Assembly: GCA_964439025.1 (NCBI GenBank)
Contig: CAYTMW010000009.1
Location: forward strand, 35,749 to 99,748
Length of the DNA stretch: 64,000 nt
Direction of reading: 5' to 3'
Origin: an uncultured Gemmatimonas sp.
Lineage (GTDB): Bacteria > Gemmatimonadota > Gemmatimonadetes > Gemmatimonadales > GWC2-71-9
The notes below the pieces were generated by a model. It saw only the letters and a list, made by a program, of their open reading frames with translations, made no database searches and was not told the DNA's origin. The position numbers were made by a program, and so were the translations under genes. The number at the start of each line of letters is the position of its first letter. Position 1 is the first letter of the stretch. Of the stretch, positions 2,849-38,905 are shown piece after piece.

Positions 2849-3988
2849 TCACCGCGGTCGCCGCGGCGCGCGAAGATCCACGGCGCCGGAGACCAGGATG
2901 TCGCGGTAGGTGACGGAATCCCCCCGCGCGCTCGTCATGAGGAACGCGGAAAGGGGCTGGAGGATCTGAGCGCTGAGATGCCCCGGCAGCGGCTGGGGCC
3001 ACTCCTCGCCGAAACCCCCGCCCATCATCATCCCGCCCCGGCCGAAGTAGCTGCGCATGATGACGCTTCCCGGCGCCGCCGGCAGATTTCGTACGTTGTC
3101 CGCGTAGCGCCCGAAGTTCCCCTGGCGGAAGAGATACATCTCGACGTTGGAGACGTACATCGCCGAGACATTCCGGCGGGTCTCCTTGAGATACGCGGCG
3201 ATCGCCTGCATGGCGGCGGGGCCGGAGAGATCACCAACCACGGGAACCACCTTGCCGCTTCGCTCCAGCTCCCGAACCACCCGGAACCGTTTTTCGGTCG
3301 AGAGATAGCTGACCTGGCGGCCATCGAGATCGGTCGAGAGATAGAGCTGGCGCTCAGAGGGATATCCGGGACGGGCGGCCCGCCCCAGGCTCGCATAGCG
3401 CAACTCGAGACCGGCGGCGAAGAACTCGTTGTGAAAACGGCGCAGCGTCTGGCGGTCGAGCGGCGTGAGCGGGACACCGTACTGTTCCACCTGGCCCATC
3501 AGCCCGGTGTGATTGAGATCGTGAAGCGCGGAATCCCCCCGCGTGCGGTCGATGTACGCCAGGATCTGATCCAGCGGGCGATTGCTCCAGCGATCGAGAT
3601 CGCGCGGCGCCGGGCGGCCATAGAGGAGGCAGAGATAGTCGAGACGGTTCCGCGCGGCGGTGAATATCGCGCGAAACAGCAGGTGCAGCAGCATGTTGTC
3701 GCGGCGGATGTCGATCAGGATCGCGATGTCGGGCTTGATCTCCGCCAGGTAGGAAAAATTCTGCTCCGGTCCGACGCCGAGATACGCGCCGCCCTGCACC
3801 TTGAGGGTCTTGAGCGCCGGGATCACGTGGAGATAGGAGGTCTCGTTCGATACCAGGTTGTCGCTGTCGAAGAATCCGCCGTTTTCCGAGAGCCGGGCGA
3901 CGAGGCGGCTGAATTCCGTGTCCTGGCGCGCCAGCGCCGCGGGCGCCGTGACCGCGAGCAGCTGAAGACTCAGAAAGAGGGAGCGCAT
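2849..3988 (-). CDS. Conserved hypothetical secreted protein
   Basis: Start moved to the ATG giving MRSLFLSLQLLAVTAPAALA (signal-like). The long 5' extension of the track ORF overlaps the upstream gene. Product not recognised. Confidence 0.7.
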   Translation of the reverse strand: MRSLFLSLQLLAVTAPAALARQDTEFSRLVARLSENGGFFDSDNLVSNETSYLHVIPALKTLKVQGGAYLGVGPEQNFSYLAEIKPDIAILIDIRRDNMLLHLLFRAIFTAARNRLDYLCLLYGRPAPRDLDRWSNRPLDQILAYIDRTRGDSALHDLNHTGLMGQVEQYGVPLTPLDRQTLRRFHNEFFAAGLELRYASLGRAARPGYPSERQLYLSTDLDGRQVSYLSTEKRFRVVRELERSGKVVPVVGDLSGPAAMQAIAAYLKETRRNVSAMYVSNVEMYLFRQGNFGRYADNVRNLPAAPGSVIMRSYFGRGGMMMGGGFGEEWPQPLPGHLSAQILQPLSAFLMTSARGDSVTYRDILVSGAVDLRAPRRPR

Positions 3989-15973: not shown

Positions 15974-16512
15974 TTCATTCCCTCCGCCAGCGTTCCGAGC
16001 GCCTGTCGCATGGCACGGCGCGCGTGAAATACATAGGACCGCACGGTTCCTTCGGGGACTCCCAGGGTCGCGGCGATATCCGCGTGACCCCACCCTTCTG
16101 CATCGAACAGGACCAGGGCAATGCGCTGCCGCTCCGGCAGCTCCGCGAGACCTGCATCGATCTTGATCCGCAGCAGCGCCGCCTCGGCCATGCGGTCCGG
16201 ACCGAGCCCTCCGGACTCCAGGGTTTCGGCGATCGGCTCGGCAGCCCGGACCTTGCCCCGGCGTCGGGCGTCGAGCGCCGCATTCACCACGATTCGCATG
16301 AGCCAGGGCCGGAATGGACGGGCGGGATCGAACCGGTCGATCGCCCGCCAGGCGGCCAGCATTCCTTCCTGCACCGCGTCATCCGCGTCGTCCTCGTCAC
16401 GCAGAATCGCGCGGGCCGCCCGCCGGGCGGCCAGACCGTGTCGGTCGATCAAGCTGCCGAACGCTTCGGGATCTCCGCGCACTGCCGATTGCGCGAGTTC
16501 GGCATCTTCCAC
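15970..16512 (-). CDS. ECF RNA polymerase sigma factor
   Basis: Contains 'DADDAVQEGMLAAWRAIDRFD...FRPWLMRIVVNAALD' and 'RIALVLFDAEGWGHADIAATLGVPEGTVRSYVFHAR'. Confidence 0.9.
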   Translation of the reverse strand: MEDAELAQSAVRGDPEAFGSLIDRHGLAARRAARAILRDEDDADDAVQEGMLAAWRAIDRFDPARPFRPWLMRIVVNAALDARRRGKVRAAEPIAETLESGGLGPDRMAEAALLRIKIDAGLAELPERQRIALVLFDAEGWGHADIAATLGVPEGTVRSYVFHARRAMRQALGTLAEGMK

Positions 16513-23017: not shown

Positions 23018-23650
23018 CTACACGAGGGAGCTCGGACACACCTGATTCAAGACACACTCCCCGCAGCGCGGCCTCCGCGCGATGCACACCCGCCGTCCAT
23101 GCCAGATCAGCAAGTGAGAAAACAGCGCCCACTCTTCTCGCGGCACCAGCGCCATCAGATCTTGTTCGATTTTTTCCGGGGTCGTCTGGCGGGTTAGGCC
23201 GAGGAGCGTCGAGAGCCGGGCCACGTGAGTATCCACGGTGACCCCCTCGTTGAGCCCGTAGGCGTTGCCCAGGATGACGTTGGCCGTCTTCCGGCCGACC
23301 CCGGGCAGCGCCTGCAGCGCATCCATGGTCTTCGGGGCCAGACCGCCATGGGATGCGGTAAGCGCCTGCGCCATTCCGATCAGACTCTTTGCCTTGTTGC
23401 GGAAGAATCCGGTGGAGCGGATCAGCTCCTCGACATCCTCCTGGCGGGCCTTCGCCAGCGCGGCCGACGTCGGATAGCGGGAGAACACCGCCGGGGTCAC
23501 CAGGTTCACCCTGACGTCGGTGCACTGCGCGGAGAGGATCGTGGCGACCAGGAGCTCGAAGGGGGTGCGGTGGTTGAGCTCGCAGTGGGCGTCGGGATAC
23601 GCCTGCTTGAGCAGTGCGATGACCCTCGCGGTCCGCTCCCGTTTTCTCAT
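23018..23650 (-). CDS. nth: Endonuclease III (DNA glycosylase/AP lyase)
   Basis: Contains '[17 protein letters not shown]', HhH '[11 protein letters not shown]', 'VDTHV.R', and an Fe-S cluster C-x6-C-x2-C-x5-C at the C-terminus. Confidence 0.93.
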
Positions 23651-32711: not shown

Positions 32712-34634
32712 TCAAGAGCCGGGAGGGACCGTCGGTGCGGAGGGAAGACCACTGCGCTGGCGCACCCGGGCCTGCTGGCCCGGCGTCATCATGTCGCGGG
32801 CAACGACCAGACGGGCCAGCGTGGCGACGAATCCGTAGCCCTGCCCGTCCACTTCGAGCCACCGTTGCCATTCGAGCTCGTCGAGGGCCGCCTCCACGCG
32901 GGCGGCGGGAAGTCCCGTGGCCTGAGTGAGCGACGCCTCGGTGGTCCTCCCGCCGAGCACCGCCGCCGCGGCGAGTACCTGCCGCGCGTCCTCGCCGAGC
33001 CGCCGGAATCCGATGCGGAGGGCGGCGACGACCGTGTCGGGAAGATCGGAAGGCAGGGTCTGGGTGAGGGTATGCGACGGCGCGGGCCAGGCGGCCGTGC
33101 CCTGCTTGAGGTCGAGGCCTTGAGCCACCGCGGACAGCAGCTCCACGGCGAGGAAGGGGATCCCCGCGGAATCACTGGCGACCCGGCGGGAAACCCGTTC
33201 GAGCGACAGCGCATCGTACGCCGGGAGCGCCCACGCGGCGAGCTGGCGGAGCGCCTCGCCACCCAGCGGCGAAAGCGCGATCGTCACGCCCGGGACGCCG
33301 GCGCCCAGCCGGCGACGGAGCTCATCCAGCTCTCCGCGCGGTGGGTGCGGGGTAGCGGCCAGCATCACACAGAGCGGCGCCCGTGGCAGGTCGCGCAGCA
33401 GGCCGACCAGCGCGAGGAGAGAGCTGCGATCGGCCCACTGGGCATCGTCGATGGCGAGCAACATCGGCGCCTCGCCAGCGGCGGCGGCCGTCACGGTGGA
33501 GAAGGCCCGGTTGAGCGGCATGGGGGCAACCTGAGCCACGCTCCGGAACCGCTCCGCCCATTCCGGCAGGTGAGCGGCGAATCCCGCCAGCGCCTCGGGG
33601 ACCGCCGCGGGAATTCCGGGCGCATCGAGCAACCCACCACGCGCGAGGCCGAGGATGCCGCTCTCTTCGTCGCTCCGGTCACTCTCGACCGCCCGCACCA
33701 GCACCACACTGGCGCCGGCAAGCACCGCGCGGCCCGCGAGCTCTTCAAGCAATCTCGTCTTCCCGGTGCCCGACTCACCCTCTACCACGATTGCCGTGGC
33801 GCCCTGACCCGCGCGGCAGCGGTCCCAGAGATCGAGCAGCGTCTGGAGCTCCTCGCTGCGGCCGACCAGCGGTGCGCGCCGATGCTCGATCTGCGCCGGC
33901 TGCGACGCGGGTTGCCTCGCCCGCATCCGCCCCTTCCGAATCCGCTCGGCGAGCTGGCGGGTCTCTTCCGCAGGGGCTGCTCCCAGCTCGCGCAGCCGGC
34001 CGGCAAAGCGCTCGGCGTGCGCGAGGGCTGCGCTGGCATCGCCCTCCCCCGCCAGCGCGGCCATGACCCCGCACGCCGCCGCATTCGACACGGGATCGAG
34101 CGCCTCGGCCCGACCCGCCGCCGCCAGCGCTTTAGCCGCGTGCCCCTGGCGGAGCAGCTCGCCACTCCAGCCCAGGAGCGCCGCGATGGAACGGCCGGTC
34201 CAGTGTCGCCGCTCTGAAGCCAGCCAGTCCTCGAAACCGTCGCAACCGGCCACCGCGAATCCTTCCAGGAATTCCCCCGCGACCAGCGAGGCGGCATCGG
34301 CCCAGGCCCCGTCGGTCATCAGCGCCTCCAGCGCCTCGGCATCGAGGCGGACGGCTTCGGGGACGAGGCGCACCTGCCCCGCCGAGGTATCCAGGCCCTC
34401 TTCGATGCCGCTCCGGCGCAGTACGCGCAACGCCTCGTTGAGCGAGTGCCGCGCGGCGCTCTCGTCCTTCTCCGGCCAGAGGAGTCCGCAGAGATGCTCC
34501 CGGGTGCGGGCGCGCTTGGGAGAGCGAGCCAGATAGACCAGCAGCGCGAGATGCTTGCGCCAGAGCAGCTCGGCGGGGGCGGGAGCGCCGTCGACGATCA
34601 CTTCGATCGGGCCCAGCACTCTGCACGTGATCAC
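32712..34634 (-). CDS. Winged-helix/BTAD + AAA ATPase transcriptional regulator (SARP/AfsR-like)
   Basis: N-terminus 'RVLGPIEV...G........RK..ALL.YLA......R..L..LLWP' followed by a BTAD region. Walker A 'GESGTGKTRLLEE'. GTG start overlaps the kinase stop as GTGA. Confidence 0.8.
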   Translation of the reverse strand: MITCRVLGPIEVIVDGAPAPAELLWRKHLALLVYLARSPKRARTREHLCGLLWPEKDESAARHSLNEALRVLRRSGIEEGLDTSAGQVRLVPEAVRLDAEALEALMTDGAWADAASLVAGEFLEGFAVAGCDGFEDWLASERRHWTGRSIAALLGWSGELLRQGHAAKALAAAGRAEALDPVSNAAACGVMAALAGEGDASAALAHAERFAGRLRELGAAPAEETRQLAERIRKGRMRARQPASQPAQIEHRRAPLVGRSEELQTLLDLWDRCRAGQGATAIVVEGESGTGKTRLLEELAGRAVLAGASVVLVRAVESDRSDEESGILGLARGGLLDAPGIPAAVPEALAGFAAHLPEWAERFRSVAQVAPMPLNRAFSTVTAAAAGEAPMLLAIDDAQWADRSSLLALVGLLRDLPRAPLCVMLAATPHPPRGELDELRRRLGAGVPGVTIALSPLGGEALRQLAAWALPAYDALSLERVSRRVASDSAGIPFLAVELLSAVAQGLDLKQGTAAWPAPSHTLTQTLPSDLPDTVVAALRIGFRRLGEDARQVLAAAAVLGGRTTEASLTQATGLPAARVEAALDELEWQRWLEVDGQGYGFVATLARLVVARDMMTPGQQARVRQRSGLPSAPTVPPGS

Positions 34635-37414
34635 GGGGGACAATGCTGCGCGGTGAACTGGCGGGCGGAATCGGCCCTGCTCTTGAAGGGGGGACCACCG
34701 TCCTTCCAGTGCCGGGCGACGGCGCGGTAAGCGGAGCATCGCTCCCGCGACGTGGTGCCTTTCAGATTCGCCAGGTGCCATCGCACCAGCGTCCCGAGTG
34801 CCCACGCCATTTCACCCGGCGTCGGGTCGCCGGTCCCGTGGCCGACGGTCTGCAAGTGCTCGTGCCAGAGCAGCGTGTTCCGCGCCGACTCGAATTCCTT
34901 CAGCCGCTCGAATTGTTCGGCGCGCAACAGGCGGATCATTGCATCCGCGAGAGGCGCCTCGTGTTTTGGCGCTTCTTCGAGCGGCGGCAGGCTGGGCAAC
35001 GCCGCGAGCGCGCCGCGTGCATCGCCCTGCTCGCCCAGAACCGCAGCGTGGAGAATCGCGCCAAAAGATTTTGGACCCCGCGACAGCGCCGTCGCGGCCG
35101 CTTTTCCGCGGGCCGGATCACCGGAACGGACCGCGAGGAGACCAGACGCCAGGGCGGCGCGCGTCTTGAGCGCGGAGTGTGCTGTGCCCGGCACGGAATA
35201 GGCGTCCAGCGCCGCGAGCAGGTCCGCCGGTGCACGGCGGACCGCCGGATCGGGGTCAAAGGTGAGAAGCGTGGCTTCCAGCTCCAGCGCGAGGAGAGGC
35301 AGTGAGACATCGGAAGACACCTGCTCGAGCCGCGCCCTGGTCACGCGCATCGAATCGAGTCGGCCCAACGCGGTGTATCCGAACAGCTGGCCGAGCAGCC
35401 CTTCGCGGACCGGCTCGGCGCGGCCAGGCCACGCGCGCGTGATCAATCCCCCGAGCTCGACGGCCCCGCGCGGCGCGTCCGCGGTCATCATGAGCCGCCC
35501 GCCGGCGGCGGCATCCTTGCTCCTCGCAAGCGCTGGATCCGACAGCACGGCGAGGGAGAAGGTCTTCGCACTGTCGGCGGGAAGAAAACGCCAGTGGTAC
35601 CCCAGACTGAGGAGCACCCGCATCCCGGCGGAAAATCCTCCGGCGGGCCCAGGCGGAAGCAGGAGAAGGCTGTCGAGCGCCGCACCGGCGGAGTTCGCGT
35701 TGCCCTCGCTCAGCAAGAGCCAGGTGAGGTGCTCCCAGCCAGGACCGAAGCGCGGTCGCAGCAGTACGGCCCGCTCGAGCGGCTCTTGCGCAGCGATGCG
35801 CGGGAAGCTGTGGAGCGGGCCCCGGTGAAAGAGCTCGTCCCCGTACTCGAAGGATGCCAGGAAAAAATCCCCGGCTTTGGCCGCCTGGGCCAGCGTGTCC
35901 AGCCGTGCGGGGAGTGGGGCGAGCGCGGCGTGAATGAGCCGCTGGTAATGGGAGGGAAAGCGGCCGATTCCAGCCCGGAGTCGCGCGAGGCGCGTCGAAT
36001 CGTGACCCTGCCCCAGCCATCGCTCGATATCGAGCAGGCGGAAGCTGCAGAGATAGCAGGCGGGGTCTGCCGCCTCCGCGCTCCGGAACGCATCGAACGC
36101 CTCCTCCCACCGCGCCTGGGCCAGGTACTGCTCGGCCCGCAGCCATTGATCGAAGCCCTGCTCATTCGAGGGCAGCGCGTCGACTGGCAGCCAGACGTCC
36201 GCCAGAGAGTCCCGCTGCCAGAGTGAACGCACCACTTTGAAAGAGAGCGCCTCCGCCACAGCGCCCAATTCCGCTCGTGCTCCTTCGACGCTCACCGTAT
36301 CCGAGGCGGTGCCTGCCGCCCACCGAGCGCGTATCCGGATCTTGCCGGCGGCCTCGCCGAAGGATCCGCTCACCCGCACCAGGGCGGAATCCGGTGGCCG
36401 CCCGAGAGGGAGCACGTTGAAGTCGGGATACTCGAGCGACCGGCGAAGCATTGCAGACACCGAGTCTCCGAGAGACGCGCTCACGCCGGGCGACTCCGAC
36501 CGGAATGTCTCGACGGCGATGGTGACCGCCCCCCGGGGAGCCGACACCGGACCCGCCGGGCGCAGGACTAGCCACCCCACGATGGCTGCCAGCACCGCCC
36601 CAATCCCGACGAGAGACCAGCGCGGCCGGCGGCGAGATTGTCCGAGCGCCTGAAGCAGCTCGCCGGCGTCGGACCATCGCTCGGAAGGATCGAGAGCGAG
36701 CGCGCGCCGCAGCGGAGAAACCAGCGCGGCGGGAACCTGCCGCCAATCGGCGGTTTCGGGCGCCTGATAGGCGGGCCAGCGACGGCCGGTACACGCTTCC
36801 CAGAGCACGAGACCGACGGCATACACATCGGTCCGCATCGTTACCGGAACGCCATCGCGTTGCTCGGGGGACATGTAGCGCGGGGTACCGATCAATTCGC
36901 CGGGCGTCGTGAGCCCGGCGTCGTGCTCCTGCCGCCACCGCGCGATTCCAAAATCTCCGAGCAGCGCCTGGCCCTGCCGGAGAAAGATGTTGGCGGGCTT
37001 CACGTCGCGGTGCACCACGCCCTGGGCGTGCGCTGCCCCGAGGGCTCGGAGAAGGTCCTGGCCCAGACGGAGGGCTTCGGCCGGCGGAAGCGGCCCGCGT
37101 CGCAGCCGGTCGGCGAGCGATTCCCCCTCGACGAACTCCATCACGTAGTACAGGAGACCGTCCGCTTCACCGGCGTCGTAGATCGGAACGATGTTGGGAT
37201 GGGAAAGCCGGGCCAGGATCCGGCCCTCGGCGAGGAATCGTTCGGCGGCAATTGCGGTGGCGAGCTCGGGCCGAAGAATCTTGATCGCGACGCGGCGGTC
37301 GAGACGCCGTTGCCGGGCCTCGAACACGATTCCCATACCACCGCCCGCCACCTCGCGCTCGATGTCGTATTCAGATGCAAGGGCGAGCCGGAACCGCTCG
37401 ATCAGAGAACTCAG
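34631..37414 (-). CDS. Ser/Thr protein kinase with TM segment and large C-terminal TPR-like domain
   Basis: Contains 'GGGMGIVFEA....RRVAIK', 'HRDVKPANI', 'DFGIA', 'GTPRYMSPE'. The 5' end is set at CTG 37414-37412 (see findings); the first canonical start is GTG 37351. Confidence 0.85.
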   Translation of the reverse strand: MSSLIERFRLALASEYDIEREVAGGGMGIVFEARQRRLDRRVAIKILRPELATAIAAERFLAEGRILARLSHPNIVPIYDAGEADGLLYYVMEFVEGESLADRLRRGPLPPAEALRLGQDLLRALGAAHAQGVVHRDVKPANIFLRQGQALLGDFGIARWRQEHDAGLTTPGELIGTPRYMSPEQRDGVPVTMRTDVYAVGLVLWEACTGRRWPAYQAPETADWRQVPAALVSPLRRALALDPSERWSDAGELLQALGQSRRRPRWSLVGIGAVLAAIVGWLVLRPAGPVSAPRGAVTIAVETFRSESPGVSASLGDSVSAMLRRSLEYPDFNVLPLGRPPDSALVRVSGSFGEAAGKIRIRARWAAGTASDTVSVEGARAELGAVAEALSFKVVRSLWQRDSLADVWLPVDALPSNEQGFDQWLRAEQYLAQARWEEAFDAFRSAEAADPACYLCSFRLLDIERWLGQGHDSTRLARLRAGIGRFPSHYQRLIHAALAPLPARLDTLAQAAKAGDFFLASFEYGDELFHRGPLHSFPRIAAQEPLERAVLLRPRFGPGWEHLTWLLLSEGNANSAGAALDSLLLLPPGPAGGFSAGMRVLLSLGYHWRFLPADSAKTFSLAVLSDPALARSKDAAAGGRLMMTADAPRGAVELGGLITRAWPGRAEPVREGLLGQLFGYTALGRLDSMRVTRARLEQVSSDVSLPLLALELEATLLTFDPDPAVRRAPADLLAALDAYSVPGTAHSALKTRAALASGLLAVRSGDPARGKAAATALSRGPKSFGAILHAAVLGEQGDARGALAALPSLPPLEEAPKHEAPLADAMIRLLRAEQFERLKEFESARNTLLWHEHLQTVGHGTGDPTPGEMAWALGTLVRWHLANLKGTTSRERCSAYRAVARHWKDGGPPFKSRADSARQFTAQHCPP

Positions 37415-37800
37415 AGGGTGGATCCCCCGGGCGGGGCGGGCTTGCGCGCAGGGTCCGCGAGCAGCCGCTCGGTAAAGTCCACCCGCTCCGCCAGTTCGCC
37501 CACTTCGCGGCGAAGCGATTCGATCTCATCGAGCAGCTCTTGCGGCACACCATGGGCCAGCGCGGCCGCGTCCTCCGGGTCCCAAAGCGCCACCCGGCGG
37601 CCATCGCCATCCCGGAATTCGCCGCTGGCGATGACAATCAGATCATACAAATACCAGAGGCCGAGGCCACCGAGCGTGCAGAGCTGCAGCAGCCCGGTGC
37701 CGATCTTCCCCACGTAAAAGCGGTGGGCGCCGAACACCCCGAGCGGGATGCAGAGTGCCAGCGCGACCGCCCGGGACTTTTCAGAGGGGTTCATTGCCAT
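37411..37800 (-). CDS. TM2 domain protein with C-terminal coiled-coil tail
   Basis: Contains 'LGVFGAHRFYVGKIGTGLLQL.TLGGLGLWYLYDLI'. Confidence 0.8.
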   Translation of the reverse strand: MAMNPSEKSRAVALALCIPLGVFGAHRFYVGKIGTGLLQLCTLGGLGLWYLYDLIVIASGEFRDGDGRRVALWDPEDAAALAHGVPQELLDEIESLRREVGELAERVDFTERLLADPARKPAPPGGSTL

Positions 37801-37879
37801 GGCGGGACGATACCATTGTCCCTCCAGATGTCCAGAGCGGCCCTAGCGGGAACGGTTTCACGGGTTACCTTGCCGCGCC

Positions 37880-38905
37880 ATGCGGAGTGCCATTGCCCTC
37901 GTCTGTCTCAGCGCGCTCAGCCGCCCCGCCCAGGCGCAGTGGGCCGCCCAGCGGTCCGGCACCGCGGCCGAGTTTCGCGGGCTCCACGCCGTGAACGATC
38001 GCGTAGTCTGGGCGGCCGGCCGGGGTGGGGTCGTCGCACGCACCACCGACGGCGGCGCCACCTGGTCCGCCGACAGCATTCCGGGCGCGTCGAATCTCTT
38101 TCTCATCGCGATTCGGGCGGTCGATCATCGCCGCGCCTGGGCGCTCGGCACGGCATTCTCCGGCCCGTCGGCGGCGCGGATCTATCGCACCGACGACGGC
38201 GGCCGAACCTGGCGTCTCCAATACGAGAACGCCACCACGGGGATTTTCTTCGACGGTATGGCGTTCTGGGACGCGAACAACGGGATCGCCTTCAGCGATC
38301 CGATCGATGGGCGATTCGTCATCATCACCACACGCGATGGCGGAGCGCACTGGAGCCGGATCGCTCCCGAGCGGATCCCGCCGGCGCTGCCGCGCGAAGC
38401 GGCATTCGCGGCGAGCGGCACCGCGATCACCGTGCGCAGGAAGAACGAGGTGTGGATCGGCACCGGCGGTGGCGCGAAAGCGCGGGTTCTGCGCTCGTCC
38501 GACCGCGGAAAGTCCTGGCAGGTGTTCGAGACGAAAGCGAGCGGGGGCCAGGCCAAGGGAATTTTCGGGTTGGCGTTCCGGGATGGCCGACACGGCGTCG
38601 CGGTCGGCGGAGACTATCAGCAGCGCGACGGCTCGCTGGAGAATCTCCTCCTCACCGACGACGGCGGCCGTACCTGGCGGATCGGATCGAGCGCGGCCCT
38701 GGCCGGCGTGCAATACGGCGTCGCCGTGGCGGGAGCGCGCACCTTCGTCGCGACAGGACCGATCGGAAGCGCCGTCTCGACCGACGGGGGACTCACCTGG
38801 CGCCGCCTCGAAGGACCAGGCTTCAACACGGTGAGCTGCGCCGGAGGCACCTGCTGGGCTGCCGGGGTCGCGGGCCGCATTTCCCGGCTCAGACCAGTGC
38901 GCTGA
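37880..38905 (+). CDS. BNR/Asp-box repeat beta-propeller protein (Ycf48/sialidase-like), secreted
   Basis: Signal MRSAIALVCLSALSRPAQAQ. Six S/T-x-D-x-G-x-T/S-W boxes (TTDGGATW, TDDGGRTW, TRDGGAHW, SSDRGKSW, TDDGGRTW, STDGGLTW). Confidence 0.85.
   Translation: MRSAIALVCLSALSRPAQAQWAAQRSGTAAEFRGLHAVNDRVVWAAGRGGVVARTTDGGATWSADSIPGASNLFLIAIRAVDHRRAWALGTAFSGPSAARIYRTDDGGRTWRLQYENATTGIFFDGMAFWDANNGIAFSDPIDGRFVIITTRDGGAHWSRIAPERIPPALPREAAFAASGTAITVRRKNEVWIGTGGGAKARVLRSSDRGKSWQVFETKASGGQAKGIFGLAFRDGRHGVAVGGDYQQRDGSLENLLLTDDGGRTWRIGSSAALAGVQYGVAVAGARTFVATGPIGSAVSTDGGLTWRRLEGPGFNTVSCAGGTCWAAGVAGRISRLRPVR

Follow-up and report, generated by a model that had tools for sequence, protein, structure and literature searches.

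The gene for a serine/threonine protein kinase encoded in a 64,000-nucleotide (nt) stretch of DNA from an uncultured Gemmatimonas sp. (positions 35,749 to 99,748 of contig CAYTMW010000009.1, assembly GCA_964439025.1; this whole stretch is hereafter the window, and all coordinates refer to it) is probably translated from a CUG codon, which forms the overlapping tetranucleotide CTGA with the stop of the preceding gene, coding for a TM2-domain protein. A prediction made from the letters of the window, without database searches, had proposed that the kinase is produced by termination-reinitiation from this CTG (37414-37412, minus strand) or from a nearby ATC, and had named an assembly indel and a programmed frameshift as alternatives. 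Translation from the CTG is now supported by three observations on the relatives of this kinase, namely, the invariance of the hexamer CTGAGT at the junction of the two genes, the onset of coding selection at the CTG or very close to it, and the status of this CTG as the only candidate start codon that all relatives share. Throughout the clade, a canonical start (ATG, GTG or TTG) is absent from the conserved N-terminus, the CTG is conserved, the codons that follow it are under coding selection, and its position is homologous to that of annotated starts; together, these features of the compared sequences point to CUG as the codon actually used. It would be read as formylmethionine by the initiator tRNA, and the resulting N-terminus, M-S-S-L-I-E-R-F-R-L-A-L-A-S-E-Y-D-I-E-R-E-V-A-G-G-G-M-G..., would be complete for a kinase.

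Conservation of the kinase N-terminus and of the CTGA junction

In the predicted protein, the Hanks-type kinase domain is followed by a single membrane helix and a large sensor region at the C-terminus. The Pkinase profile (PF00069) aligns to this protein over model positions 1-196, with a score of 136.8 bits compared to the cut-off of 31.7, and the catalytic motifs AGGGMG, VAIK, HRDVKPAN and GDFG are all recognizable in the translation. Model position 1 aligns to the tyrosine encoded at 37369-37367 (Y of EYDIERE), and the first canonical start in the frame, GTG 37351, corresponds to profile position 7, so that a protein initiated at this GTG would lack model positions 1-6, that is, strand beta-1. 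The open reading frame (ORF) and the profile alignment thus bear out the original prediction, which had placed the first canonical start inside the glycine loop, past beta-1. The same is true of the further claim that the 21 in-frame codons upstream of the GTG, which read LSSLIERFRLALASEYDIERE, represent the usual kinase N-terminus: this is the outcome of both the Pfam alignment and the comparison with orthologues, and PknB of Mycobacterium tuberculosis aligns from residue 12 of the CTG-started kinase (E = 1e-40). The statement that no start is found between GTG 37351 and the next in-frame stop upstream also stands, but the stop itself had been misplaced to 37865-37867; the nearest one is the TGA at 37528-37526, and additional stops interrupt the kinase frame farther upstream, at 37645-37643 and 37783-37781. 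The probability of a run free of canonical starts is about 0.035 for the 58 codons between the TGA and the GTG and about 0.30 for the 21 codons. The run alone is therefore unremarkable by chance, and the case rests on homology, which was tested and holds.

Loci of relatives were collected from genome bins, from JGI metagenomes and by exact protein look-up, and come from independent assemblies (JGI, ENA, NCBI and Logan). There are 15 distinct sequences without a canonical start: the window, L011, L174, L084, L083, L081, L082 and L161-L168. In each of these, no ATG, GTG or TTG is present from the TM2 stop to the glycine-loop region, at a kinase identity of 62-91%; the top value belongs to L011, which is 91% identical to the window kinase over the 160 residues compared. 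The overlap of the CTG with the TM2 stop codon (TGA 37413-37411), as described in the original prediction, is plain in the sequence, and the alignment of orthologues, proposed there as a check, found the junction and the CTG conserved in 15 of the 15 start-less sequences, always as CTGAGT at the TM2 TGA. A sequencing or assembly indel that removed a normal start or split a single gene could be suspected from the 5-G homopolymer located 10 nt upstream. The recurrence of the same frame arrangement and of CTGAGT in 15 distinct sequences from independent assemblies rules out such an indel, and we consider its probability to be negligible.

Positions 0 to +5 of the junction are invariant, whereas positions -9 to -1 and +6 to +8 are all variable. 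Among the codon columns of the same 15 sequences in which the amino acid is invariant, the nucleotides are invariant as well in 5 of 42 four-fold degenerate columns (12%) and in 6 of 33 two-fold degenerate ones. The second codon of the kinase, AGT, is the minor serine codon elsewhere (2 AGT vs 11 AGC). The last residue of the TM2 protein varies (L, I, T or V), but the third base of its codon is C in all 15 sequences. With A, G or T in place of this C, the junction would read ATGA, GTGA or TTGA, and a change to G would leave leucine, threonine and valine unaltered, that is, three of the four residues found at the TM2 end. The fixed C and the fixed AGT thus hint at active retention of the weak codon.

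The pattern of substitutions indicates where the coding of the kinase begins. In codons 2-21 after the CTG, the ratio of nonsynonymous to synonymous differences (pN/pS) is 0.34 in the kinase frame, compared to 1.04 and 3.08 in the other two frames; for the kinase domain, the kinase-frame value is 0.19. In the 12 codons before the CTG, the ratio is 1.58 in the kinase frame and 0.81 in the TM2 frame. The distribution of variable sites over codon positions 1, 2 and 3 gives a similar picture: 10/5/18 of 20 codons after the CTG and 40/33/103 of 120 codons in the kinase domain, but 12/11/8 of 12 before the CTG, where no coding pattern is apparent in the kinase frame. In L011, the relative at 91% identity, the three codons that precede the CTG change from H-P to D-Y in the kinase frame, whereas the TM2 frame retains S-T-L/I. 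In these alignments, purifying selection acts in the kinase frame on the 20 codons following the CTG, and the same frame upstream of the CTG is unconstrained. Judging from the pN/pS values and the codon-position pattern, coding in the kinase frame begins at the CTG or within one or two codons of it.

Candidate start codons and alternative modes of expression

Several other near-cognate codons are located nearby in the kinase frame of the window, namely, CTG 37405, ATC 37402 and ATC 37423, and any of these could conceivably serve as the start, instead of CTG 37414 or along with it. However, all three are replaced in relatives: CTG 37405 by CTC or CTT and ATC 37402 by CTC in L084, L083, L081/L082 and L174, and ATC 37423 by TCC, TTC or CGG. 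The latter codon, the secondary candidate of the original prediction, loses its support for this reason and because it lies upstream of CTG 37414, where the kinase frame is unconstrained. Two relatives narrow the choice from opposite sides. The open kinase frame of L166 extends only 12 codons upstream of the CTG, and none of the 12 is NTG or ATN; in L083, no near-cognate codon follows the CTG until codon 18, which is already within beta-1. Of the near-cognate codons, the CTG of CTGA alone is shared by all relatives. Initiation at this CTG places 24 residues before GGMG, which is the modal N-terminal length of the annotated homologues (40 of 95), and the orthologue L001 carries a TTG start at exactly the equivalent codon, 1 nt past the TM2 TGA. 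The family can apparently tolerate other solutions, as suggested by the L176 lineage (see below), in which an ATA and the CTG of the L-I-E-R motif are the candidates, but for the window kinase, the use of a different nearby codon seems unlikely.

Even less likely is a genuinely truncated protein that starts at GTG 37351 or at ATG 37336, the codons upstream being a relic. These two codons are the sole canonical starts, GGTGG and GAGG motifs are present upstream of ATG 37336, and gene callers choose such sites in 25 of 120 homologues. However, the 20 codons upstream are maintained by purifying selection while the synonymous sites differ at about 47%, so that they are not a relic, and the GTG is not conserved as a start, being replaced by GTT in L084. 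Furthermore, the product would not contain SSLIERFRLALASEYDIER and would be devoid of beta-1 and, if initiated at the ATG, also of half of the glycine loop.

A programmed -1 frameshift late in the TM2 gene would yield a TM2-kinase fusion protein. The kinase frame is indeed -1 relative to the TM2 frame, no stop interrupts it in the window for 37 codons ahead of the CTG, and a G GGG GGA or G GGG GGT heptamer is located 14 nt upstream in L011, L174, L083 and L081. Nevertheless, the window, L084 and all of L161-L172 lack such a heptamer, and the search of the upstream frame in the window and its relatives for a slippery heptamer of the form X XXY YYZ found none that is conserved. Upstream of the CTG, the kinase frame is open for just 12 codons in L166 and 8 codons in L170, and in the orthologues that possess an ATG, the two genes are separate, with spacers of 1-12 nt. 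A search for conserved downstream RNA structure at the junction was negative (consensus of -8.95 kcal/mol, with a covariation term of -0.7), the window junction is not unusually stable but rather folds worse than shuffled sequence (z = +1.19), and no fusion protein was found among the 120 best homologues of the TM2 protein. Given the lack of a conserved heptamer, structure or fused homologue, the frameshift fusion is disfavoured, and we assign to it a very low probability.

Probable coupling to TM2 translation and comparison with known systems

Given that translation from CUG 37414-37412 is the most probable solution, the geometry of the junction suggests how it might work. The TM2 and kinase genes are co-directional, the stop codon and the CTG share TG, and this arrangement is conserved in the 15 sequences. 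Since two bases of the CUG also belong to the UGA of TM2, ribosomes terminating TM2 translation would be brought straight onto the CUG, so that initiation at this codon is probably, although less certainly than the use of the CUG as such, coupled to TM2 termination; from the geometry, termination-reinitiation at CUGA is plausible and appears to be the most likely mechanism. Wherever TM2 is present, the spacing between the two genes is -4, +1, +2, +5, +10 or +12 nt. The loci with TM2 and a canonical kinase start show +1 to +12 nt, which is within the range where coupling operates (PMC12548453, PMC10666635). An alternative form of coupling, in which translation unfolds a hairpin that hides the start, found no support, given that shuffled controls fold better than the junction.

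A weak start that depends on upstream translation would hold the output of the kinase low and link it to TM2 synthesis. A separate matter is whether selection maintains the CUG as a weak codon for obligately coupled reinitiation, rather than just tolerating it as a relic. The fixation of C in 15 sequences although G would be synonymous, the fixation of the rare AGT and the loss of the canonical start on more than one occasion all speak for such selection, but we propose it only tentatively and consider it somewhat improbable. If this is the case, synthesis of the kinase would be restricted to ribosomes that had completed TM2 immediately before, resulting in a fixed, low kinase to TM2 ratio for a membrane signalling pair.

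The run of five G that precedes the CTG in the window resembles a Shine-Dalgarno (SD) site. The duplex with the anti-SD sequence at the window junction is estimated at -8.6 kcal/mol, approximately in the top 5% of the window background and stronger than that of any of 20 window genes with little start ambiguity; in the nearest relatives, the values reach -9.4 to -10.6 kcal/mol. This G-rich run, 7-8 nt upstream, may aid initiation in the subgroup of the window, as a possible helper rather than a requirement. As an explanation for the whole clade, the SD site is only half supported, the duplex being weak in L161-L168.

A number of considerations weigh against initiation at the CUG or against individual elements of this scenario. 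The conservation of the CTG is partly forced because the TGA is fixed as the stop of TM2, and the invariance of the C and of AGT rests on about 3-4 subclades, so that the joint estimate of about 0.02 is rough. CTGAG(C) is also found in L173, which carries an ATG two codons farther on; hence, the hexamer was present before the ATG was lost and did not necessarily arise as a start. In the L161-L168 subgroup, the anti-SD duplex amounts to just -4.8 to -5.8 kcal/mol, the strong run being limited to the subgroup of the window, and SD use is weak in the window genes in general (mean of -3.7 kcal/mol vs -3.6 kcal/mol at random positions); the organism may rely little on SD sites, and crude start calls could blur the signal. 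CUG is inefficient in Escherichia coli, at about 1-2% of AUG (bioRxiv 10.1101/063800), and better acceptance of CUG by reinitiating bacterial ribosomes is an assumption. A contribution of CTG 37405 or ATC 37402 is conceivable in the window itself. Finally, the case for the use of CUG is built on sequence comparison.

Each of the two components of this locus has precedents. Proven bacterial CTG starts include those of hda and yfjD of E. coli (PMC3531124) and of the rep gene of FIB plasmids (F, P307 and pO157), where databases misplace the start by 14 codons, to a downstream GTG, and the weak codon has been proposed to keep expression low (PMC11983097). CTG is used by about 0.024% of the annotated genes in model genomes (cited in PMC11983097). 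As in hda, yfjD and FIB rep, no usable canonical start is available at the conserved N-terminus of the window kinase, and the CTG is conserved among relatives. As in FIB rep, annotation shifts the start downstream, by 21-26 codons in the kinase compared to 14 in rep, and as with other CTG-start genes, the weak start is proposed to limit expression. These three cases were proven by N-terminal sequencing or mutagenesis, whereas the evidence for the window kinase is comparative. In addition, FIB rep has a good ribosome-binding site, whereas the CTG of the window is embedded in a CTGA overlap, with a strong SD-like run in part of the clade.

The most common geometry of coupled genes is the NTGA overlap (PMC12548453, PMC6728339). 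The TM2-kinase pair resembles the described pairs with a -4 nt overlap (Huber et al. 2019, PMC6728339; review PMC12548453) in that the genes are co-directional, share TG and are conserved neighbours, but in those pairs, N is A, G or T, whereas here N is C, the downstream codon is non-canonical, and coupling is predicted from the geometry. We found no paper in the bacterial literature on a conserved CUGA overlap; a report on reinitiation at non-canonical codons (PMC4648390) deals with eukaryotic translation and does not transfer. Thus, the locus combines a CTG start with an NTGA overlap, which is a small step from known cases, and given that CTG starts and NTGA coupling are each known, it adds an example rather than a new principle. 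It nevertheless presents a natural, clade-conserved case of a non-canonical start within a stop-start overlap, which could serve to test whether terminating bacterial ribosomes reinitiate at CUG and whether weak coupled starts set protein ratios.

With respect to the protein itself, the window kinase resembles the receptor kinases PknB and PknA of M. tuberculosis in possessing a kinase domain, one membrane helix, an extracytoplasmic sensor region and a short lead-in to beta-1. Unlike PknB and PknA, it has an unrelated sensor region without PASTA domains and is paired with a TM2 gene and a BTAD/AAA_16 regulator.

Gene neighbourhood, annotation and start-codon history

The coordinates of the kinase gene, its candidate starts and the adjoining features are given in Table 1. 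The TM2 protein (72.9 bits with the PF05154 profile, compared to the cut-off of 27.9) contains two predicted membrane helices followed by a tail of about 70 amino acids (aa) that ends in PPGGSTL; each of its 120 best homologues (79-94% identity) is a separate protein, 119-162 aa in length. TM2 is far better conserved (79-94% among these 120 best matches) than the adjoining kinase (about 40-70% in the same bins), and its cluster at 90% identity has 45 members. The order of four genes, a divergent BNR-like gene, TM2, the kinase and a BTAD/AAA_16 regulator (32712-38905 in the window), is kept in all relatives examined.

Table 1 Features of the kinase locus in the window
Feature	Coordinates	Strand	Remarks
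Proposed CTG (CUG) initiation codon of the kinase	37412..37414	minus	First of 21 codons; CTGA with the TM2 stop, -4 nt overlap
Invariant hexamer CTGAGT	37409..37414	minus	Candidate start codon, TM2 stop and second codon AGT (Ser)
20 N-terminal kinase codons ahead of any canonical start (SSLIERFRLALASEYDIERE)	37352..37411	minus	Include the start of the Pkinase domain
Revised kinase gene	34631..37414	minus	927 aa with the CTG start; stop TGA 34633-34631
First in-frame ATG/GTG/TTG (GTG)	37349..37351	minus	Within the glycine-rich loop; product V-AGGGMGIVFEA
ATG of the GGGMG motif	37334..37336	minus	Start of the public gene call for the window kinase (P0001, 901 aa)
Nearest upstream in-frame stop of the kinase frame (TGA)	37526..37528	minus	No ATG/GTG/TTG in the 58 codons down to the GTG
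GGGGG run, SD-like	37424..37428	minus	7-8 nt upstream of the CTG; also encodes Gly-Gly of the TM2 tail
TM2-domain gene, 129 aa	37411..37800	minus	PF05154, E = 2.5e-20; stop TGA 37413-37411
BNR/Sortilin-like gene, 341 aa	37880-38905	plus	Divergent from TM2
GTGA overlap of the kinase stop and the BTAD/AAA_16 regulator start	34631..34634	minus	Same 4-nt overlap at orthologous loci

Overlaps of this kind are recurrent in the window, although to a lesser extent than originally claimed. The original prediction counted at least 13 other ATGA or GTGA pairs. Six are unambiguous (stops at 16025 and 44186 on the plus strand and at 23649, 18037, 13936 and 13187 on the minus strand), and about three more are probable (stops at 34633, 54821 and 2403, all on the minus strand); with the crude gene calls that were available for this count, 13 was not reached. 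A second CTGA junction, at 4000-3988 on the minus strand (stop 3999-3997), is in frame with the gene that follows but was rejected as a parallel to the kinase start: here, an ordinary ATG at 3988, 9 nt past the stop, opens a signal peptide (MRSLFLSLQLLAVTAPAALA).

The protein search with the extended kinase retrieved full-length orthologues of 915-950 aa from Gemmatimonadales metagenome bins. Most of the orthologues at 40-55% identity start with M-x-x-L-L-E-R or M-L-(L/I)-E-R from a normal ATG. In contrast, almost every one of the closest orthologues (62-72% identity) has its annotated start at MG(V/I)VFEA, MREVAGG or VREVAGG and is likewise truncated. Altogether, 25 of the 120 best homologues, some of which are fragments, are annotated from GGMG or later, an indication that gene callers commonly remove the N-terminus in this kinase family. 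Several of the 25 belong to other clades (P0045, P0050, P0052, P0077, P0094 and P0103). Callers limited to ATG, GTG and TTG drop 21-26 residues, including beta-1 and part of the ATP-binding glycine loop, so that kinases modelled or expressed from the database entries would be crippled. This mis-annotation affects the public entry of the window kinase itself along with many relatives, and the locus is of clear value for the correction of annotation.

In the neighbour-joining tree, P0004 (L173) is nested inside the CTG clade, and its junction reads CTG AGC ATG CTG CTG GAG, with the ATG two codons after the CTG. The junction of P0006 (L170-L172) is CTG AAT GAA TTG, with a TTG at codon 4. These two junctions imply that the CTGA arrangement is older than the loss of the ATG. 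Within the CTG clade, either the canonical start disappeared two or more times, or a single loss was followed by its recovery.

The canonical start has also been lost on a separate branch of the tree, in L176 (P0035; L177 is identical), the sister of P0025, which starts with ATG. At this locus (L176, 1400-1500), TM2 ends with TAG and the kinase frame reads ATA GCC GCG GCG CTG ATC GAG, the candidate starts being the ATA, which overlaps the stop as ATAG, and the CTG at the leucine of L-I-E-R. L174/L175 (P0024) show a discordance of a different kind: the first 150 residues and the junction DNA are near-identical to those of the window, but over its whole length the protein is just 54% identical to the window kinase, and the tree places it in another clade. 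Judging from these sequences, P0024 looks like a mosaic in which the C-terminal sensor region was exchanged by recombination.

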